A DNA stretch of 30,321 nucleotides, taken from positions 1-30,321 of the IMG/VR virus record IMGVR_UViG_3300009151_000255; one strand, 5' to 3'. Every line of letters begins with the position of its first letter. Positions within the stretch are counted from its first letter, which is position 1. A program made the translations under genes and the position numbers. Under the pieces are notes generated by a model. That model saw only the letters and a program-made list of their open reading frames with translations. It was not told the DNA's origin and did not search any database. Below, in pieces: positions 5,199-14,734 of this stretch. This DNA is from a virus (Duplodnaviria; Caudoviricetes).

Positions 5199-6968
5199 GT
5201 GAGCGACTTCAATCTGCAAAACTTTTGGAAGTTCTGTTCGGCGTTGCAGGTCGATACCAAAGAGTTGGGCCTGACGACGTTAAACCCCAAGACGTTGATG
5301 GGAACGCAGAAGTATTTTATCGAAGAGGTGGCGAAGGGTCTGGAGGAAGGCATCCATACTTTTGTTGTCTTGAAGGGCCGGCAGTTGGGGATTACAACAA
5401 TCTCTTTGGCGCTCGATCTGTATTGGATGTTTAAACACAGCGGCATGTCCGGTTCGATGGTGACGCACGACGAAGAAACCCGGGATATGTTCCGATCAAC
5501 CCTTGCGATGTATATGGACGGGCTGCCAAATGAATTTAAGCGACCACTTGTCACACATAACCGGAGTCAGCTTACCCTCAAAAATAGGTCGAGATTTGCG
5601 TATCAAGTTGCAGGTACACGAAAAAACACCAAGTTGGGCAAAGGCAAGGCTCTCACATTCCTGCATGCTACAGAGTGCTCTGAATACGGAGATGAGGAAG
5701 GACTCGCTTCACTAGAGGCGTCGCTTGCCGAGCAAAATCCAAACCGGCTCTTTGTGTGGGAAACCACGGCGCAGGGGTATAACGCCTTCTTCGATATGTG
5801 GGAGGATGCTAAAGCCAGCCGCGTCAAGAAAGCGATCTTTATCGGCTGGTGGCGCAATCAGTTCTACCGCAAGAAAAAAGGCAGCATCGAGTACCAAGTG
5901 TATTGGGATGGCCGGCTGCAACCCGAAGAAAAGAAATGGGTGCGCGAGGTCAAGCAGCTCTACGACTTCGACGTGGATGACGAGCAGATCGCCTGGTGGC
6001 GTTGGGCGATGGCCGAGAAGTCGCGGGACGAAACCCTACACATGCAGAATTACCCGCCGACCGAGGACTATGCTTTCGTCTTGTCGGGCAGCCAGTTCTT
6101 CAACGCGGCGCGGATTAACGACGAATACAAGCGAGCGTCGAAGTTCGATTTCCACAATTACCGTTTTGTCTTGCGAGAGGCTTTCGAGGATACGGACATT
6201 TTGGAGTGCGGCGAAAAGAATGGAAACCTCAAAATATGGGAATTCCCCAAGTCACAAGGCCACTACGTCATCGGTGCCGATCCAGCCTACGGCTCCTCCG
6301 ATTGGGCCGATAGGTTCTGCGTGTCGGTATGGCGATGTTACGCCGACGGCATGGAGCAAGTGGCCGAGTTTTGTACGCCAGACTGCTCCACGTTCCAGTT
6401 TGCTTGGGTGATGATCTATCTGGCGGCCAGCTACTTGAATGGCGGCGGGTCTGTCATGCTTAACTTGGAAATTAACGGCCCGGGTCAAGCCGTTTGGCAA
6501 GAAATCCAAAACTTGAAACGCACCGCCGTCAATCAGCCCGGAGAGGGCGGGGCTCGACTGTATTCGGTAATCGCGAACATTCAGAATTACCTGTACAAGC
6601 GATTGGACAGTATGGGTGCGCCGTCGGCCTATCATTGGAAAACGACCGGCGACACCAAAGAGCGCATGTTCAACTTAATCAAAGATTGCTTTGAGCGCGG
6701 AATTTCGTTGGTTAAGTCACGCGAGATGATTGACGAAATGAAGAACGTCATTCGGGATGACGGGATGCTCGGCGCGCCGGGTAGAGGCAAGGACGATAGG
6801 GTTGTGGCTGCCGCATTGGCCCATGTGGCGTGGGCAGACTTTGTCCGTATGCGAATGGTTCAGCAGGGCATGACGCGCCAGCAGGGGCATGCGCGTGACG
6901 CGCAGGGCGAGAACAAGGACGCGAACAGTGTGGCCGGATTCCTCAAGAGTCTTGGGATTGCGGCGTAA
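5199..6968 (+). CDS. terL: Terminase large subunit
   Basis: Walker A LKGRQLGITT, Walker B FLHATE, coupling motif ETTAQG, nuclease motifs VIGADPAYG and DDRVVAA. Likely start is GTG 5199 with a GAGGT RBS, not 5130. Confidence 0.93.
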   Translation: MSDFNLQNFWKFCSALQVDTKELGLTTLNPKTLMGTQKYFIEEVAKGLEEGIHTFVVLKGRQLGITTISLALDLYWMFKHSGMSGSMVTHDEETRDMFRSTLAMYMDGLPNEFKRPLVTHNRSQLTLKNRSRFAYQVAGTRKNTKLGKGKALTFLHATECSEYGDEEGLASLEASLAEQNPNRLFVWETTAQGYNAFFDMWEDAKASRVKKAIFIGWWRNQFYRKKKGSIEYQVYWDGRLQPEEKKWVREVKQLYDFDVDDEQIAWWRWAMAEKSRDETLHMQNYPPTEDYAFVLSGSQFFNAARINDEYKRASKFDFHNYRFVLREAFEDTDILECGEKNGNLKIWEFPKSQGHYVIGADPAYGSSDWADRFCVSVWRCYADGMEQVAEFCTPDCSTFQFAWVMIYLAASYLNGGGSVMLNLEINGPGQAVWQEIQNLKRTAVNQPGEGGARLYSVIANIQNYLYKRLDSMGAPSAYHWKTTGDTKERMFNLIKDCFERGISLVKSREMIDEMKNVIRDDGMLGAPGRGKDDRVVAAALAHVAWADFVRMRMVQQGMTRQQGHARDAQGENKDANSVAGFLKSLGIAA

Positions 6969-6970
6969 CG

Positions 6971-7156
6971 ATGGCGCACGACAACACAGACTTCGTTGTT
7001 GGCGAGCTGCTCAAATTCTATCGAATGTATGAGCGCGATCCGATCTATCAGCGGAAGGTTTTGGAGGGCTGGCAGCAAGAGGCCAAGACAGGCCGCAGTT
7101 ACCGCAAAGCCTACGACCAGGCATACCGGCAGATCATGATGGAGAAGTCGCGTTGA
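6971..7156 (+). CDS. Hypothetical protein
   Basis: 61-aa ORF tightly packed between TerL and the next gene. Confidence 0.6.
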   Translation: MAHDNTDFVVGELLKFYRMYERDPIYQRKVLEGWQQEAKTGRSYRKAYDQAYRQIMMEKSR

Positions 7157-7602
7157 GCGATCAGCCCAATCACCTCACCATGCCGGTCGAGGAAATTCGC
7201 ACCAGAACGATTGCGGCGCTCAAGATTTTTCCAAAAATACAAATCGCAAAGCTGATGAAAGTGCGGTCGCACGATCTGACGTTGTTCGTTCAAGCGAGGC
7301 CGCAGGACGCAGGCCGCAGATTCGGGCCGCTACAGTTGAAGCGCCTTGCAAAAATCTGCCTGCAAATCGAAACCGGAGAGCTGCGGCACAACGGCAAGAT
7401 GGTTGGGCGCGGCAGCAAAATTTGGATTGATAAGCCGATCCGGCCGGCGCTTCCGGTGCACCGCGTTATTTTTGGGCGAGCCGGAACGCATCCCAAGATT
7501 GTGCAAGGCGAAGCGCCGGTCAAGGAAACCATGCCTTCATTCGACAAGCTGTTTTCCAGCAAACCGACCATCGTATTGCCGAAATTGTCCTTTAAGCGTT
7601 AA
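7153..7602 (+). CDS. Hypothetical basic protein, possible N-terminal HTH
   Basis: GGAG RBS, TTG start overlapping the previous stop; the KIQIAKLMKVRSHDLTLF segment is HTH-like. Confidence 0.6.
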   Translation: MSDQPNHLTMPVEEIRTRTIAALKIFPKIQIAKLMKVRSHDLTLFVQARPQDAGRRFGPLQLKRLAKICLQIETGELRHNGKMVGRGSKIWIDKPIRPALPVHRVIFGRAGTHPKIVQGEAPVKETMPSFDKLFSSKPTIVLPKLSFKR

Positions 7603-7625
7603 ATACACACACTCAGGAGGCGTAA

Positions 7626-8072
7626 ATGGCCGTTCTTCACGACTACAATTGCATGGCGCATGGTGTTTTTGAGAGCATGACGGGTAATTGCCCGCATGGT
7701 TGCGGCAAATCTATGGTCGAAATCACCTACATTCAGCCTGCCGGACTGACCTCTTTTCGCACCAAAAACATCGACAAAACCCTCGGAAACCTCGCTTCTG
7801 ACTTCAAATTGACCGACATGAACAATCAAAACGGCACTTCGGCGGTTGTTCGTCCAAATTCAAAGGCCGTGGCGGCGCAAAATCAATTGATGGGAAAGTT
7901 GGGCGATACGCGAAATGCGTGGGGTCAGGTTCCGCAGGGCACTTCGGGCATCAATCAAGCGCTCGCGTCATCAAAGGCAATCCCGGACAACGCATTGCAG
8001 CCCATTCGACCGGCGCTTCAACAACCAAAGCCAATGGTGGTGGGTCGCCATGACGGCGAGATTAAGGCGTAA
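7626..8072 (+). CDS. Zinc-ribbon (FmdB-like) protein
   Basis: AGGAGG RBS; N-terminal DYNCMAHG.FE...CPHGC; typical position between terminase and portal. Confidence 0.7.
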   Translation: MAVLHDYNCMAHGVFESMTGNCPHGCGKSMVEITYIQPAGLTSFRTKNIDKTLGNLASDFKLTDMNNQNGTSAVVRPNSKAVAAQNQLMGKLGDTRNAWGQVPQGTSGINQALASSKAIPDNALQPIRPALQQPKPMVVGRHDGEIKA

Positions 8073-8075
8073 GCA

Positions 8076-9707
8076 ATGAAAATCCCAAAAGACATGCAGC
8101 AGCGCGATATGTTCTACCAAGAGCTGATCGACAAGTGCACAAAATCCCAGGACGACCGCCGGATTGACTACGGCAGCAATCGGCATTTCTTCCTGTTCGG
8201 TCGCGGGCCGGACGAGCCGGAAACGCCATACAACAAAATCTTTCCGCACATCGACATGCTGACTGCGTTTCTGTTTGCGTCCGAGACAACAAAATTCACG
8301 ACGCATTTAGGGCCGCACATTCCAGGCCACGAATACCTGCGCCTCAATGCAATCAACCGCGCCGTCAACGACCAGTGGCTCATGTCAAACGGTGACCAGA
8401 CTTTTGGGCAAGGCTTGATCTGGTCGCTGGTCTACAACACGATGATCTTTAAAATTATCGTTCGCGCCAACGAAAAAGGTTTGCAGGGAATTGATCCGTT
8501 CATTATTGACCCGGGCTCGTTCGGCGTATTGCGGGAGGATATTCCTTACTTGGATCGCCAAGAGGCAATGTGCCATTCCTACTACACAACCAAGTCGCAG
8601 CTGGAAGTGGATTTGGCAAAGCATCCGCAGCGCGAGCAAATTCTTGCCAACCTTGACGCATTTCCGCGCACCAACAAAGAGTCCGATCCGACCGGTGTTG
8701 ATCGCATCATATTGTCCGCATCTACGCCGACGATGCAAGGTAACGCGCAAGTTCCTCTCAACGCGAATGTTGACTACATGCCGAGAGTCGCGGAGGACTT
8801 GGTTGAGATGCAGGAACTTTGGGTGTGGGATACTGATGGCGGCGATTACCGCGTCGTAACAAGAGCCTCAAACTCGGTCACGATTTACGACCGAATGAAT
8901 TTCTTTATCAAGGGCGAGGTGCCGTTTGTTCAGATTTGCCCGAATCCGATGTACTCGTACTTTTGGGGCATGTCAGAAGTCAGCGGCTTGGTGGGCTTGC
9001 AAAAGTGGCGCAATCAGCGCGTTTTGCAGGTCAAGGAATTGCTCGATCTGAATGTTGATCCCCCAACATCGTTGACCGGCTGGATGGGCTTGGTTGACGA
9101 AAAGAATTTTGCATTGAATCGTCCAGGCGGTTTGCTCGTCACGGATTCCATGCAAGGCAAAGTGGATCGCCATAAGCCGGACATTCCCCCCGATCTTTTT
9201 GCCGTCATCCACGAAATTGACGCGATGTTCTCGGAGCGCAGCGGCCTGCAAAACATTATGATGGGCAAAGGCGAGTCCGGAGTTCGCTCTGGCCGGCAGA
9301 CCTCTGAGCTGGCGCGGCTTGGATCGGCTCGAATCAAGAAGCGGGCGCTGGTGGTTGAAGATGCTTTGGAAAAAATCGCTACGCTTTATCTCAAGGTCAT
9401 GCAAAAACACGACACCAACGACTTGAAAGACGCAAAGGGTAATCCGTTTATTCCCTCGCAATTCACGTCAGATTACGTCGTGAAAGTGGATTCGCACAGC
9501 AATTCCCCGCTGTTCTCGGAAGATCACAAACAGTTGGCTGCCGAGCTGCTGGAGGCTCACGCAATCGACCGCGAATCGTTCATTGAAATGATTGACCCGC
9601 CGATGAAAGACCTATTGCTGCGGAAACTAAAGCTGATGGAGGCTGCGGAGCAAAAGGCGAAGCAGGCTGAGGCTCAATCGGAGGCGGCGGGCAATGCTGC
9701 AAAATAA
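8076..9707 (+). CDS. Portal (head-tail connector) protein
   Basis: 543 aa, downstream of TerL; motifs YNKIFPHID, PFVQ...YFWGMSEV..L..LQ, and SG......GKGESGVRSG resemble podovirus portals. Confidence 0.85.
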   Translation: MKIPKDMQQRDMFYQELIDKCTKSQDDRRIDYGSNRHFFLFGRGPDEPETPYNKIFPHIDMLTAFLFASETTKFTTHLGPHIPGHEYLRLNAINRAVNDQWLMSNGDQTFGQGLIWSLVYNTMIFKIIVRANEKGLQGIDPFIIDPGSFGVLREDIPYLDRQEAMCHSYYTTKSQLEVDLAKHPQREQILANLDAFPRTNKESDPTGVDRIILSASTPTMQGNAQVPLNANVDYMPRVAEDLVEMQELWVWDTDGGDYRVVTRASNSVTIYDRMNFFIKGEVPFVQICPNPMYSYFWGMSEVSGLVGLQKWRNQRVLQVKELLDLNVDPPTSLTGWMGLVDEKNFALNRPGGLLVTDSMQGKVDRHKPDIPPDLFAVIHEIDAMFSERSGLQNIMMGKGESGVRSGRQTSELARLGSARIKKRALVVEDALEKIATLYLKVMQKHDTNDLKDAKGNPFIPSQFTSDYVVKVDSHSNSPLFSEDHKQLAAELLEAHAIDRESFIEMIDPPMKDLLLRKLKLMEAAEQKAKQAEAQSEAAGNAAK

Positions 9708-9709
9708 AT

Positions 9710-9738
9710 TTGAAATTGGCAAAAGATTGGTGTAAAAA
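9710..9738 (+). promoter_or_regulatory. Putative sigma70-like promoter ahead of the basic peptides
   Basis: TTGAAA (9710-9715), 17 bp spacer, TAAAAA (9733-9738, imperfect -10); predicted start near 9745. Confidence 0.35.
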
Positions 9739-9745
9739 TTCGCAC

Positions 9746-9779
9746 AGGGTATGGCTGTGTTCCCTTTAAAACGTGGCCG
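9746..9779 (+). ncRNA. Predicted H-type pseudoknot in a 5' leader
   Basis: S1 AGGG 9746-9749 / CCCT 9762-9765; S2 GGCTGTGT 9753-9760 / ACGTGGCC 9771-9778 (three G-U pairs); loops of 3, 1 and 5 nt. Confidence 0.4.
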
Positions 9780-9799
9780 CTTCGACTAAGGAGATGATT

Positions 9800-9844
9800 A
9801 TGGCCCGCCGTTCGCGCCGCGCTAAACGCGCTTCCAAGAAGTAA
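9800..9844 (+). CDS. 14-aa Arg/Lys-rich peptide MARRSRRAKRASKK
   Basis: Strong AAGGAGA RBS at correct spacing; paralog-like twin 108 nt downstream. Confidence 0.7.
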   Translation: MARRSRRAKRASKK

Positions 9845-9907
9845 TCGGATTCGTCCGATGGTTGGGTGCGTCAGCGCCCATTCTCAATCCAAGCCCAGGA
9901 GAAGATT

Positions 9908-9952
9908 ATGGCCCGCAAACACATGCGCGCAAAGCGTAAAAGCAAGCGGTAA
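9908..9952 (+). CDS. 14-aa Arg/Lys-rich peptide MARKHMRAKRKSKR
   Basis: CAGGAGAAGATT before ATG; shares GATTATGGCCCGC with the first peptide gene. Confidence 0.7.
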   Translation: MARKHMRAKRKSKR

Positions 9953-9987
9953 TACCGCCCTCGATGCCCGTCAGCATCGAACATTAT

Positions 9988-10016
9988 TTGACTTTGCTGA
10001 AAAACACGTTTTTAAT
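9988..10016 (+). promoter_or_regulatory. Sigma70-like promoter for head genes
   Basis: TTGACT (9988-9993), 17 bp spacer, TTTAAT (10011-10016). The 10-mer TTTGACTTTG also occurs at 4495 upstream of the HTH gene. Confidence 0.55.
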
Positions 10017-10062
10017 ACAAGCTGTTTATCAGTAAAGTAAGCAATTACTGACGGAGAATCTA

Positions 10063-10695
10063 ATGGCACTCGGATACTTGCAACAGCGTCAAAAAGTCGG
10101 CAACCAAACCGAAGATAACTTCGTCGCCGGCATTGGCGTCAACGGTCAGCTTAACGTGGCTGGCGGGCAGCTTATCTGCTCAAATATCCCCATCGGTTCC
10201 GTCGCGCTTGCTAGCATTGGCACCAATACGACCGATATCGTCCAGTTGTGGACAACCGATATTTTGGTTCCCTACAACCGGATCGTGAAAAACATCAGCA
10301 TCCTGTCGGGCGGCACCGCCACGACGGACAATTGGCTTGCCGCGATTTACGACTCATACGGTCGCTTGATTGCCTCAACCGCTCTGGCCGGTCAGTTGCT
10401 CGCCACCGCGAACACTTGGCAGACCCAACCGCTGGCGCTGGTCTATCCGGCAAGCGGCCTGACCGCGTCAACCGCCGGCCTGTCAGCAACGCAGGTTCAG
10501 CTCTACGGCCCGCAACAGTATTTCATTGCGGTTCAGGGTAGCGGCACAACCGCAGGCGCTTTGCAGACCGTTCCGGCCCCGTATCAGATTTGCGCTTCCG
10601 CGATCACGGCGGCAACTTTCGGAACGATTCCGGCCACGATTACGCCGCCGACTACATTTACGGCAGCCAAAGCCCCAATTGTTTACTTGAGCTAA
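10063..10695 (+). CDS. Putative virion structural/decoration protein
   Basis: 210 aa, Ala/Thr/Gly-rich beta-type composition; GGAG RBS; in the head module. Confidence 0.6.
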   Translation: MALGYLQQRQKVGNQTEDNFVAGIGVNGQLNVAGGQLICSNIPIGSVALASIGTNTTDIVQLWTTDILVPYNRIVKNISILSGGTATTDNWLAAIYDSYGRLIASTALAGQLLATANTWQTQPLALVYPASGLTASTAGLSATQVQLYGPQQYFIAVQGSGTTAGALQTVPAPYQICASAITAATFGTIPATITPPTTFTAAKAPIVYLS

Positions 10696-10702
10696 GACTG
10701 AT

Positions 10703-11302
10703 ATGGCACAAGACATGGGAAATGCTTTGCAGGTGTCGATAGGCTCAAGCCTGCCGACCTACAAGGCCGTCCTGTTTGATGTTGTGCCCTACACTGCCGC
10801 CAGCGATGTTTTAAATATCAGCTTGGCGTCAACGGCAACCGTGGCGCTGCGGGTGACGCGGTGCTATGTGTCGTACGACGCAACCGCCAGCTCGACCTCG
10901 GACGCCTATCTTATTCGGCGCATCACAGCCAATGTGGGCGGCACTCCAACAACTTTCTCGACCACGCAAGCGTCATTTTTGTCTGGATTTGGGGTTGTCA
11001 CGCAGTCCGATACGGCTGACGCGGCCACGGCAGCGACGGTTGTTGGCTATACCGCAGCTCCTTCTACGCTCGGAACCGGTCAAATTATTGATGGCGCACA
11101 CATCACCATTCCGGCGGCGGCAACTCCGTCAGTCTCGGTTTCGTTTTTTGAATTGACCTTCACGACTCGCGGCAGCAAGCCGCCGATCATCCGTCCAGGC
11201 CAATCGATTTCATTGTCTTTGGGGGCCAATACGGTTCCTTCCGGCGCATCTCTTTACGCCTCGATTGAGTGGGTGGAAGTGCCGCTCACGTCGGTATTCT
11301 AG
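10703..11302 (+). CDS. Putative virion structural protein
   Basis: 199 aa, Ala/Thr/Ser-rich, beta-sandwich-like. Confidence 0.55.
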   Translation: MAQDMGNALQVSIGSSLPTYKAVLFDVVPYTAASDVLNISLASTATVALRVTRCYVSYDATASSTSDAYLIRRITANVGGTPTTFSTTQASFLSGFGVVTQSDTADAATAATVVGYTAAPSTLGTGQIIDGAHITIPAAATPSVSVSFFELTFTTRGSKPPIIRPGQSISLSLGANTVPSGASLYASIEWVEVPLTSVF

Positions 11303-11310
11303 GAAAAAAC

Positions 11311-11769
11311 ATGCCAGCTATTGACCCTAAACTTGCGGCCCTTATGGGCAAATCCGGCCCGCCGACCCCTCTCCCTCCGGGCGGGCCGGATGCGAGTCCT
11401 GCCGGCGGTGGCGGGATGGCTCCGGTGAGCGCCCCTATGTCTGGCCCGCAAGAAAACGCCGGAGAAAAACAACAGGCGATGCTCAAGGTTCAGCAGGCAA
11501 TGGATTTGCTCGAACAGGCGTTGCCCGATTTTGGCAGCGAATCCGAGGAAGGCGGCGAGATTCTCAAGACGCTCGGCACCCTCGGTAAGAAATTTGGCGG
11601 CGCAAACCGCGCCCGAAGCAACGAATTGATGCCCGCAGAGTTGATGAATTTGCTGTCGAGCCTTCCGCAAGGTCAGGGTGGGATGAAGCCCATGCCCCCA
11701 AGCGGAGCACCCGGCGGCGCACCGCCCGGAGGCGCGGCACCAATGCCCCCGATGCCCCCAATGGCTTAA
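11311..11769 (+). CDS. Pro/Gly/Met-rich head-module protein
   Basis: AGGA RBS before ATG 11311; low-complexity termini around a helical core. Confidence 0.7.
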   Translation: MPAIDPKLAALMGKSGPPTPLPPGGPDASPAGGGGMAPVSAPMSGPQENAGEKQQAMLKVQQAMDLLEQALPDFGSESEEGGEILKTLGTLGKKFGGANRARSNELMPAELMNLLSSLPQGQGGMKPMPPSGAPGGAPPGGAAPMPPMPPMA

Positions 11770-11781
11770 CAGGAGAAAACC

Positions 11782-11988
11782 ATGTCCGACTATACCGGCG
11801 TTTTTGCCCCCAAATCTTTTTCAATCCGCGACCCGCTCGACAAGAAGCGCCAGCATGGCCGCATCGTCAACCCGCCGCGCCTGAACCAAATGGGCGGTCT
11901 GGATCAGCTCAAAGAGCCGAATGGCCCGTACAAGAACGAAATGACGCTGCAAAAGCCCGGCGGCACGACTTCGGGCGTTCGTAAATAA
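11782..11988 (+). CDS. Hypothetical head-module protein
   Basis: CAGGAG RBS; 68 aa. Confidence 0.7.
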   Translation: MSDYTGVFAPKSFSIRDPLDKKRQHGRIVNPPRLNQMGGLDQLKEPNGPYKNEMTLQKPGGTTSGVRK

Positions 11989-12040
11989 TTTTTCGATCAA
12001 CAGTGTGATTGCTTACTCTTAACCGTCAGGGGAAAACATC

Positions 12041-12571
12041 ATGGCCGTATCACTAGAAGGAATGACGCCAGAAGCGATAGCCGATTTGGCCGCGCTGGCA
12101 AAAGGTTTGACCGACAACCCGAAAACTCGCGGCATGATGCTGCAAGCGATGAAGGTTGCCGACCCAAATCTTTCAATACCCGAACTGGATATTCCAAACC
12201 GAATTTCCAGCTCGGTCAAACCTTATGTGGACAAGATCGAAAGACTTGAACGTGAAGGGCAAGAGCGATCGATGCGCGATATGGTCAGAGAGCGCCGCGA
12301 GAATCTTGTCAAGAACAAGGGGCTGAGTGCTTCTGATGTTGCAGAAGTGGAAAAACTTATGGTTGAAAAAGGTATCAATAACCACGATACCGCTGCCGAG
12401 TTTTTCATTTCGCAGCGCAATTCAGCGCCACCGACACCAAGCAGTTTTTCGCAACCCGCACTACCAAGACCCGATCTTAAAACGATGGGCTTGAACATCA
12501 ACCAATGGTCACGCAATGAGGCTACCAATGCCATTGCAGACCTTATCAAGAATCGCGGTAGGGCCGCGTAA
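12041..12571 (+). CDS. Putative capsid scaffolding protein
   Basis: 176 aa, charged and coiled-coil-like, immediately upstream of the major capsid gene. Confidence 0.65.
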   Translation: MAVSLEGMTPEAIADLAALAKGLTDNPKTRGMMLQAMKVADPNLSIPELDIPNRISSSVKPYVDKIERLEREGQERSMRDMVRERRENLVKNKGLSASDVAEVEKLMVEKGINNHDTAAEFFISQRNSAPPTPSSFSQPALPRPDLKTMGLNINQWSRNEATNAIADLIKNRGRAA

Positions 12572-12583
12572 CAGGAGAACACC

Positions 12584-13591
12584 ATGTCAGTACTTGGCAC
12601 AGGCATCATCCCTTCGGGGAGCATCGCAAACGAGCTGACGGCAGTTACCCGCCGCGCTTTCATTCCGAAACTGGTTGTGCAGTTATACAACTCGACGCCG
12701 CTTTTGGCCGCGCTGATTGCGAACTCACAAACCGCATCGGGCGGTGTATCGTCTGTGTCGGTTCCTGTGCAGGGCGCTTCATTCGTGTCCGGCCAGTGGT
12801 CAGACTATTCGGGCGGGTTCGCGCAGCCCTCCTCGCAGCAAGGTGCCTTCCTCGCGGAATTTAACCTGAAGCTGTTTATTACCCCGATCCCGTTCCTCGG
12901 TATGGAAGGCGCGGTGCAGCTTGACTACGCAATCATCCCGCTGATCGAGGCTCGCATGAACGACGCGACGAACGTCACTTGCGACGTGATGGCGACCGCG
13001 CTCTACAACAACACGACCAATCAGCAAGCGTTTATCGGCCTTCCGGGCGCGATTGACGACGGCACCAACCTGACGACCTACGGCAACATCAATCGCACCT
13101 CGTCACCGTATTGGAAATCGAAGGTTTATGCCGCCGGCTCAGTCAACCCGACCCGTCAAAACGTGCTGCAATACATCAGCGGAACCGTGAAAAACGGCGC
13201 AGAGGTTCCGACCTTTGGCGTGTGCGGCTTCGGCACCTGGACTTTGCTGGCACAAGACTTTGTCGGACAAGAAACCTTCATGATTACGCCGGACAAGGCG
13301 TTCGACAGCGACCCGGATGGCCCGCGCAGCGGCTTCCGCGCCCTGATGGTTGCCGGCGTTCCGATCTTTGCCGATCCGTATTGCCCCGAGGGCACGATGT
13401 ATCTGGTGAACAGCAATTACGCATCGCTCTATTTCCATGAGCAAGCGTCTTTTGCCTTTACCGGTTTTGAGTCAACCCTGTCAAACTGGCAGCTTGGCTA
13501 CGTCGGCGCACTTGTGAACATCGCTGAATTGGTCGTCACCAAGCCGAAAGCGATGACCCGCATTGGTGGTTACAACAGCTTGACGCTGTAA
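12584..13591 (+). CDS. Major capsid protein
   Basis: 335 aa, CAGGAG RBS; motifs ELTAVTRRAFIPKLVVQLY, GLPGAIDDG..TYGNINR..YWKS and GVPIFADPYCPEG; position after the scaffold gene. Confidence 0.85.
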   Translation: MSVLGTGIIPSGSIANELTAVTRRAFIPKLVVQLYNSTPLLAALIANSQTASGGVSSVSVPVQGASFVSGQWSDYSGGFAQPSSQQGAFLAEFNLKLFITPIPFLGMEGAVQLDYAIIPLIEARMNDATNVTCDVMATALYNNTTNQQAFIGLPGAIDDGTNLTTYGNINRTSSPYWKSKVYAAGSVNPTRQNVLQYISGTVKNGAEVPTFGVCGFGTWTLLAQDFVGQETFMITPDKAFDSDPDGPRSGFRALMVAGVPIFADPYCPEGTMYLVNSNYASLYFHEQASFAFTGFESTLSNWQLGYVGALVNIAELVVTKPKAMTRIGGYNSLTL

Positions 13592-13603
13592 AAGGAGAAT
13601 GAC

Positions 13604-14734
13604 ATGGGATTTAATGTAATTGGCTCCGGCCTCAAAACTCTCGCAAACCCGTCGTCGGCTGTGACGCTGCAAAGCGGTCAATACGCCGTTCTGCCGGGCG
13701 GCCAGTACCTCGTTCAGCTCGGCAAATATTCCGCGCTGCAATGGTACGATCCGATTTCGACCACTTGGCGCAATTTCAACGCCATCACCGCCGGATCAAT
13801 CGTTCCGTTTACCTCGGACGGTTACAACTACCGCATCATGAACCTGAGCGGAACTGTTGTCGGCGGCGTGGTTACGACCGGCGGCACCTCTAACGCGGCG
13901 AAAAACGGCATCTGGCTGGCGGGCTCCTCGTCCACCACTGGCGCGACTGCGACCGTTGCGGCTCCGGCTAACGCCCCGACGCAAACGGCTCAAATGAACG
14001 TCATCGTGGGCGGTGCGATCCAGCAAACCATTACCGTTACTGCTGGCGGTTCCGGCTATGTCATCCCTCCGATCATCAGCTTTTCGCCGCCTCCGGCCGG
14101 CGGCCTACTACCGACCGCGTACGCAGTTTTGACCGCCGGCGCAGTTTCCAGCGTTACGGTCGTCGATCAAGGCGCTGGCTACACATCGGCCCCGACCATC
14201 ACTGTGACGCCGGTTTTTGGCGACCCGGGTGTTGGCGCGGTTTTGACTCCGGCTCTCGTTACTTCAACGACCGGCGGTTACGGTCAAGCGGTTGCGGTCA
14301 CCATGTCAAACTACGGCGGCGGCTACGCGACTGTGCCGACGATCACCTGTGCTGGCCTGACCAGCATGGCGGTCACCGCGGTTACTTGCCTCTCGGTCAT
14401 CACCGCGACCACCGTTACGGCGGCCTCGGGCGGCGCTAACGGCTCGCAGTTGACATACGTGGCGCAGCCGACCGCAGCGACGCTGTTCGGCTCGATGAAA
14501 AACCCGTCCTATACGACCAACCTGTTCTCAATGCGGAACGGCTTGGGTGGCTACAACACTTCGGCTACCTATGCGTCGCAAACCATTCTGGACGGCGGCT
14601 TGAGTCAATTGGACGTTTCAAACTTGGCAACCTTCACCCTGGCGTCAACCGGAACGGTTCCTGCGGCAACGACGTTTGCCTCAGGCGCATCCGGCGGCGT
14701 GGCAAGCGATATCAGCTACGTCATTCCTCTGTAA
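13604..14734 (+). CDS. Virion structural protein (capsid decoration or fibre) with G.GY(T/V)..P.IT beta repeats
   Basis: Repeats TVTAGGSGYVIPPIISF, TVVDQGAGYTSAPTITV and TMSNYGGGYATVPTITC; AAGGAG RBS; follows the capsid gene. Confidence 0.7.
   Translation: MGFNVIGSGLKTLANPSSAVTLQSGQYAVLPGGQYLVQLGKYSALQWYDPISTTWRNFNAITAGSIVPFTSDGYNYRIMNLSGTVVGGVVTTGGTSNAAKNGIWLAGSSSTTGATATVAAPANAPTQTAQMNVIVGGAIQQTITVTAGGSGYVIPPIISFSPPPAGGLLPTAYAVLTAGAVSSVTVVDQGAGYTSAPTITVTPVFGDPGVGAVLTPALVTSTTGGYGQAVAVTMSNYGGGYATVPTITCAGLTSMAVTAVTCLSVITATTVTAASGGANGSQLTYVAQPTAATLFGSMKNPSYTTNLFSMRNGLGGYNTSATYASQTILDGGLSQLDVSNLATFTLASTGTVPAATTFASGASGGVASDISYVIPL

Follow-up and report, generated by a model that had tools for sequence, protein, structure and literature searches.

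Protamines and the baculovirus protein P6.9 are polycations that are defined by composition and compact double-stranded DNA; they are tens of residues long and dominated by arginine, with multi-Arg runs. The adenovirus Mu peptide (protein X) counts 19 amino acids, is present in 100–300 copies per virion, helps to condense the genome, and is cut from a 79-aa precursor by the viral protease (excerpts of PMC7998265). In the Microviridae, the small basic protein J/VP8 resides in the capsid interior and serves in DNA packaging (excerpts of PMC11945456). IPI, IPII and IPIII of phage T4 are basic, high-copy, non-essential proteins of the head interior, which bind DNA at low salt; these internal proteins of 8–20 kDa carry a 10-residue capsid-targeting propeptide that is removed by the prohead protease (excerpts of PMC9026906).

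The locus considered here lies in a stretch of 30,321 nucleotides (the window) from the IMG/VR virus record IMGVR_UViG_3300009151_000255. As judged by sequence comparison, a conserved class of micro-genes with a candidate new RNA leader is real. Two of the 103 ORFs compared look like chance calls and were later removed; the remaining 101 peptides (1,216 residues) consist of 34% R and 30% K (64% R+K) in x-R-K repeats, with 6 L/I/V/F/W, 3 D/E and 1 P, in contrast to the Arg-dominated protamines and P6.9. With adenovirus Mu they share the character of a very short, strongly basic peptide in a dsDNA virus, whereas they are encoded by stand-alone genes of 9–20 codons with their own Shine-Dalgarno (SD) sequence, ATG and stop, in a tailed phage, and with K about equal to R. 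J/VP8 is likewise a small basic phage protein, but it occurs with 60 copies in ssDNA T=1 capsids, while the micro-ORF peptides are shorter and belong to a dsDNA phage with terminase and portal. J carries a hydrophobic capsid-anchoring tail, which is missing from the micro-ORF peptides with their six L/I/V/F/W residues in 1,216. The T4 internal proteins are similar in being basic and in their tailed-phage head context; they differ in that the micro-ORF peptides are of about 1.7 kDa, 9–20 residues long and almost pure charge, and the propeptide is absent from both window peptides. By analogy, the micro-genes would work like Mu, J/VP8 and the T4 internal proteins, yet they fail a defining feature of each. 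The original prediction had likened them to protamines and Mu, which is apt as an analogy but not as homology.

Full-text literature searches, limited to the beginnings of abstracts and with few subscription papers, returned no description of such genes in tailed phages. A 2022 survey of small phage genes may list these families. The class would have been missed because it falls below the limits of gene callers, and trypsin would leave pieces of 1–3 residues. The Minerva preprint and PMC10690425, as far as consulted, contain nothing on such micro-genes.

The two micro-genes of the window and their neighbours

By PHROG and Pfam searches the window codes for a terminase, an SU10-type portal, a major head protein and tail proteins, and so belongs to a tailed dsDNA phage. 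The upstream neighbour of the micro-genes is the portal gene (8076..9707, + strand; PHROG portal, E 1e-7; Pfam SU10_portal, 40.2 bits at a cut-off of 30). A record with identical portal and post-portal region measures 37,350 bp and has direct terminal repeats.

Micro-ORF A (9800..9844, + strand; ATG at 9800, TAA at 9842-9844) encodes MARRSRRAKRASKK, and micro-ORF B (9908..9952, + strand; ATG at 9908, TAA at 9950-9952) encodes MARKHMRAKRKSKR. Both comprise 14 codons with 8 R/K and a net charge of +8, and GATTATGGCCCGC is common to their starts. ORF A belongs to a peptide class led by a predicted pseudoknot and ORF B to a class without it, such that the window holds one peptide of each class, in an order reversed with respect to the usual one. 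The SD of ORF A (9788..9794, with AGGAGA at 9789-9794, + strand) lies 5 nt before the ATG, and for it a weak pairing with CTTC (9780-9783) is predicted (-3.1 kcal/mol, z -1.38); the AGGAGA of ORF B (9897..9902, + strand) also lies 5 nt before its ATG. Hairpin 1 (9844..9859, + strand; -5.6 kcal/mol, z -2.05) shares its first base with the end of the ORF A stop codon, and is followed by hairpin 2 with its GUCA loop (9863..9880, + strand; -12.2 kcal/mol, z -4.06), loops resembling the latter being found in L004, L005, L007, L008, L031, L057 and L130. Hairpin 3 with the loop CCGTCA (9961..9980, + strand; -8.9 kcal/mol, z -4.25) follows ORF B and is terminator-like by a consensus scan.

Two 14-codon ORFs with eight R/K each, their AGGAGA sites and three hairpins downstream had been proposed in the original prediction; all are present where it placed them, and the folds have been computed. 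The twin length and the common start hold in the window but not across the family, in which relatives have 9–20 codons and other starts; the 13-nt common start was rejected as a family motif, as it is not conserved in relatives. That the ORF track misses the micro-ORFs was also correctly noted: the ORF lister returns longer GTG-started frames (9773-9844 and 9866-9952) of which they merely form the tails; the upstream GTG starts of these frames were rejected because they sit inside structures. With an RBS, 8-25 codons and an R/K share of 40% or more as the limits, the 30-kb window yields no ORFs but A and B on either strand. A weak sigma70-like site, TTGAAA-18-AAAAAT (9710..9739, + strand; one found against a shuffle mean of 0.5), would place a transcription start near the 5' end of the pseudoknot; the same rule finds none in L004, L005 and L007.

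Further downstream lies the capsid block, with which the micro-genes travel in relatives (11302..13591, + strand; recognised from the PHROG match for the major head protein, MCP, and from gene order). It comprises, all on the + strand, a Pro/Gly-rich gene (11302-11769), a small gene (11782-11988), a likely scaffold labelled by its position (12041-12571), and the MCP gene (12584-13591; PHROG E 1e-31). The MCP, net negative and with 12-19 R/K over its approximately 335 aa, is without a basic arm and gave a single weak match to solved structures (E 0.019). The product of 11302-11769 is conserved and Pro/Gly/Met-rich with a central helical segment; it is without a family match, an atlas search returned unnamed viral clusters only, and it is more acidic in the sub-branch in which peptides were lost. 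Between the micro-genes and the capsid block, at 10063-11302, two T/A/G-rich genes (210 and 199 aa) are variable among relatives and gave no PHROG or Pfam match; they possibly encode decoration proteins.

Conservation, selection and the link to the capsid block

Portal-based scans yielded 222 loci (L001-L142 and L271-L350), of which 27 were dropped for an incomplete portal end or less than 450 nt downstream. Among the 195 evaluable loci, 172 carry 1-3 R/K-rich micro-ORFs (9-20 codons) within 900 nt of the portal stop; by clusters, these are 61/64 at 90% and 14/17 at 70% portal identity. In a later batch micro-ORFs were present in 65/65 evaluable loci, many of them on contigs already counted. 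The first 47 representatives hold 75 micro-ORFs in 28,181 post-portal nt, compared with a mean of 0.08 and a maximum of 1 in 50 dinucleotide shuffles; a same-strand control elsewhere gave 2 in 354,948 nt, both of them family members displaced by an inserted gene, and the opposite-strand control 1 in 383,129 nt. A peptide-side search returned 120 loci, of which all 80 with flanks belong to the same phage family and 40 are without flanks. In two GenBank relatives the micro-ORFs are present and unannotated, the region being covered by antisense 'hypothetical' genes.

Tool estimates put the IMG/VR stretches of this phage family at roughly 1,800-2,400, and an IMG/VR scan aimed at distant portals recovered the same 50% group again. 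A scan of bacterial and archaeal genomes (78 loci) revealed family-type matches of 12-13 aa on contigs with the same portal (L385, L416, L441, L140) and nine further in-frame matches of 15-22 aa. Variants of 20-25 aa with Met-rich or other N-terminal additions occur in L477, L485, L500, L501, L505, L469 and L524, in which the micro-ORF length is flexible and the basic end kept. A short Glu-containing N-terminal extension precedes the basic part in L031:5845-5907 and in L538 (+1023 after the portal stop), which we take to be reminiscent of a cleavable targeting peptide.

The 116 peptides derive from 170 distinct nucleotide sequences, with up to 10 nucleotide variants per peptide. Over 103 nearest-neighbour pairs, which are not fully independent, 192 synonymous changes in 892 sites compare with 142 non-synonymous changes in 2,825 sites (pN/pS 0.23), and the commonest peptide changes are A/S/T/G swaps at spacer positions. 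Of the 103 ORFs, 67 have a net charge of +8 and another 27 one of +7 (94/103 together). Frame, SD, basic composition and position are thus kept in relatives along with a synonymous excess, the pattern for which the original prediction had proposed to look. Selection, as read from these substitutions, acts at the protein level, on charge with free sequence. Most peptide C-termini are RK, RR, KK or KR; the pseudoknot-led class mostly ends in RK (36/48) and the other class mostly in RR (38/53). Arginine is encoded by CGY in 264/312 codons of the micro-ORFs versus 762/1,284 in portals, and 70/75 micro-ORF stops are TAA; a strong SD, CGY codons and TAA stops are sequence features expected of heavy translation. 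The codon counts, with common codons prevailing, led to the rejection of attenuation by rare codons. An invariant AT-hook-like RGR core was likewise rejected, since it occurs in 28/101 peptides and is absent from the window peptides. In one lineage (L058:5832-5909, also L270 and L290) the second micro-ORF contains two AGA codons, and the sole tRNA of the genome, Arg(UCU), starts 7 nt beyond its stop.

Ten distant GTDB contigs were examined with a micro-ORF threshold of 30% R/K, three of which have too little downstream DNA. Basic micro-ORFs are present in 6/7 evaluable contigs at 26-44% portal identity (L527, L535, L537, L538, L539 and L540, that of L538 being called at 28 codons), as well as in L138 and L360 (38-40% portal identity); even at 26% portal identity the SD, the ATG and a stop in frame remain. 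In L538, L539 and L540 unrelated genes part the portal from the micro-ORFs, and the Pro-rich gene, small gene, scaffold and MCP directly follow the latter. L536 has no micro-ORF after the portal, and the head genes are absent there too. The micro-genes therefore follow the capsid block and not the portal. Furthermore, two portal-blind pattern scans gave 18 matches with 4 in-frame ORFs of at most 25 codons. All four are surrounded by packaging, head or tail genes, in phages unrelated to this family, and one overlaps a terminase small-subunit gene; at n=4, this placement lends weak support to a link with morphogenesis.

Three clusters are without peptides, namely L036 (20 loci), L136 and L312. 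They nest in one sub-branch that lost the pseudoknot-led gene first, according to a FastTree portal tree rooted on L138 and drawn without support values; these nested losses mark the peptides as non-essential. In the L036 clade, two complete genomes contain no ORF of the micro-ORF type elsewhere, the two basic matches in G002 being ends of longer ORFs. A run of small basic ORFs is seen elsewhere in this peptide-less-clade genome (L266:5720-6235, G002). A further gene, ORF X, encodes about 55 aa (50-60) adjoining the portal, with a D-Q-P-R motif and a basic tail, and was found by pattern in 42/64 representatives (e.g. L013:5598-5765). In this tail a Y-G-R motif is frequent, resembling the way in which one peptide class starts. 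ORF X is absent from the clade of the window and kept in all three peptide-less clusters, and no cluster is without both.

The leader pseudoknot and other RNA and DNA elements

The leader of ORF A is predicted to form an H-type pseudoknot (9746..9778, + strand), with stem P1 at 9746-9749/9762-9765 and stem P2 at 9753-9760/9771-9778. It spans -54 to -22 of ORF A; across the family 16-22 nt separate the end of the HMM match from the ATG. In 39 relatives 91% of cells are paired, with 36 two-sided changes (0/500 shuffles), and one P2 pair occurs in all four Watson-Crick forms. The 39 representatives were chosen from 47 by a motif regex, and the structure is favoured over slid controls because it was read from the same sequences. 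Folding of the window pseudoknot with ViennaRNA gives stem P2 only (z -0.01), so that the prediction rests on covariation. In 2.1 Mb of fetched, redundant DNA, training set included, the pseudoknot HMM has 258 matches at E<0.01, of which 255 precede a basic micro-ORF and 3 lie at contig ends; it has no match in the distant GTDB contigs. Between 42 and 48 of the 64 representatives have the element, which leads only one of the two peptide classes.

The linker from the pseudoknot to the SD is short, 63% pyrimidine, and pairs weakly with the SD. In the pseudoknot-led class the SD pairing probability is 0.67 versus 0.56 for shuffled linkers (36/48 above their own shuffle), the linker used partly overlapping P2; in the other class it is 0.34. 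Rfam gives 0 matches in the window at the gathering score (best E 5.1 in 9680-10100), and three pseudoknot core 12-mers, in DNA or RNA spelling, are absent from the searchable supplements of PMC10690425. The pseudoknot is a candidate new cis-regulatory RNA. Comparable in form is the autoregulatory T4/T2 gene 32 pseudoknot, which belongs to the gene of a nucleic-acid-binding protein, is also H-type, lies 67 nt upstream, and is accompanied by an unstructured A+U tract with UUAA repeats (excerpts of PMC3014915). Both are placed 5' of the RBS, a likeness of form only; the pseudoknot found here, with covariation in both stems, is located at -54 to -22, with a short pyrimidine-rich linker instead of the A+U tract.

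The 36 nt past micro-ORF stops fold with a mean of -9.6 kcal/mol (n=103); the corresponding values are -4.0 for other genes (n=258) and -6.5 for shuffled sequence, and hairpins past the stop occur throughout the family. Beyond ORF B, a TTGAC(A/T) box (9988-9993), -35-like and with a poor -10, overlaps a long predicted hairpin (together 9988..10038, + strand); the inverted repeat over the TTGACT box extends over 9991-10038 (z -5.68), and apparent compensating changes in L004, L005 and L007 were seen by eye. TTGAC[AT] occurs within 200 nt past the last micro-ORF in 47/61 representatives versus 0.14 per 200 nt in portal coding sequence, and the box satisfies the full promoter rule in only 15/61. 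The loop sequence CCGTCAG at 9968-9974 is complementary to CTGACGG at 10048-10054, which overlaps the SD of gene 10063; L004, L005 and L007 retain the two sequences, with no covariation between them. Another group (L013, L019, L021, L024, L085 and L105) has a second conserved element past the last micro-ORF (e.g. L013:5990-6030), in which a hairpin loop could possibly pair with a downstream CTCCTCC and form a second pseudoknot before the TTGAC box.

Possible roles of the peptides

Fixed charge with free sequence, the lack of a hydrophobic face, variable copy number, signs of strong translation and the tie to the capsid block together suggest a stoichiometric polycation for DNA during head filling, and a role based on charge alone would fit both the composition and the position before the capsid block. 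We give about even chances to the reading that the peptides are bulk-made, sequence-nonspecific polycations that enter the head as counter-ions of the DNA and are retained in the virion. The micro-genes would be translated in bulk late in infection into peptides of roughly +8 that bind DNA irrespective of its sequence; the strength of the SDs, the common codons, the 1-3 gene copies and the hairpins after the stops would yield far more peptide than the 12-copy portal. The peptides would enter the prohead, or travel inward attached to the DNA, and would damp the repulsion between phosphates as a polyamine does, but with a size that prevents leakage. The pseudoknot may stabilise the mRNA or set the output, possibly with feedback when peptide exceeds DNA, as in T4 gene 32. 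In a genome of 37,350 bp, neutralising 10% of the phosphates would take about 930 peptides.

Several points speak against retained counter-ions. Most peptides are without a targeting sequence that would explain head entry, and in most genomes of the 50% group the micro-ORFs lie upstream of the TTGAC box and hence apparently outside the strongest capsid transcript. Tailed phages, moreover, store naked dsDNA well with polyamines and cations (excerpts of PMC6755088). As for expression, no RNA run was listed for window positions 9500-10300, and no contig from three RNA runs of the same sample matched positions 7000-14000; this weighs neither for nor against. A wider proposal, which we put forward only tentatively, is that many podovirus-like phages carry DNA that is not naked: ribosomally made 'polyamine substitutes' of 10-15 residues, at hundreds to thousands per head, would set internal pressure and particle stability in low-salt water or soil, their supply being titrated against DNA by a pseudoknot switch.

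Alternatively, the peptides could act in assembly only, either by compacting concatemeric DNA for the terminase or by forming a charge condensate with acidic scaffold and Pro-rich proteins, and then be released. Position and composition serve this explanation just as well as the retained counter-ion, the scaffold-like and Pro-rich products encoded nearby have, for the most part, a net negative charge, and a capsid-targeting signal would be unnecessary. We nevertheless consider it unlikely: peptides bound to DNA or enclosed in the prohead would be expected to be retained in part, and in the sub-branch where peptides are fewer the Pro-rich proteins show greater acidity (net -8 to -12 in L027, L036, L061 and L136), a trend that does not suggest charge pairing.

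In a role in RNA-level regulation, the capsid operon would be tuned either by the peptides attaching, as arginine-rich motifs, to the pseudoknot or hairpins, or by their translation remodelling the leader. The original prediction had named RNA binding as an alternative, and this is kept alive by the pseudoknot, which it did not see: the covarying element is strictly tied to one peptide class, the SD of that class is weakly paired, hairpins follow the stops, and in the window clade the CCGTCAG loop faces its complement before gene 10063. Common codons and TAA stops are, however, ill-suited to stalling leaders, R and K are interchangeable, and the copy number ranges from 1 to 3. With the TTGAC box usually lying between the micro-ORFs and the next gene, and the peptides kept in distant phages in which the pseudoknot was not found, regulation of this kind seems improbable.

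A function against host defence, in which the peptides would be packaged and ejected with the genome and shield it from host nucleases or sensors, takes T4 IPI as its model; the T4 internal proteins are basic, present in about 300 copies per head and ejected, and IPI inhibits restriction (excerpts of PMC9026906). The Glu-containing extensions in L031 and L538 would also be in keeping with it. Purifying selection on charge is found rather than rapid turnover, low-complexity 12-mers would be poor candidates for specific inhibitors, and no prohead protease was matched among the 28 window proteins scanned; we regard this function as quite improbable.

Outer membranes may be perturbed by polycations, and some ribosomal proteins are basic and very small. 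That the peptides work outside head assembly, either as cationic lysis helpers that permeabilise the membrane or by binding ribosomes, is nonetheless very improbable in view of the missing hydrophobic face, the near-absence of proline and the strict link to the capsid block; an amphipathic lysis peptide was rejected on composition. That the ORFs are untranslated by-products of a conserved RNA or DNA element is barely credible, for although the region is rich in conserved structure, the synonymous excess, the up to 10 nucleotide variants per peptide, and the SD, ATG and in-frame stop kept in the most distant portals all argue against it.

If the peptides are indeed retained as counter-ions, a phage-encoded, protamine-like counter-ion would be added to the picture of tailed phages with naked DNA plus polyamines, and few non-leader genes would be shorter than these micro-genes. 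The idea is testable, since a comparable ORF exists in a cultured phage. Among eight phages with a distantly related MCP, seven have no such ORF between portal and MCP and one, the podovirus Tunturi 1, has an unannotated, Lys-rich ORF of 22 aa (net +7, AGGAGG) between portal and scaffold (L351:4332-4400), which is also found in Tunturi 2 (L359:2833-2901). In PP887698 it occupies positions 5736-5804, and these phages infect Tunturiibacter psychrotolerans. No IMG/VR relatives of the Tunturi portal were found, so that this ORF rests on two near-identical genomes; the accessible part of the isolation paper (PMC11924767) contains no mass spectrometry. The 22-aa ORF is followed by a 43-aa basic gene, a Pro-rich gene, the scaffold and the MCP, an order that echoes the architecture of the window.
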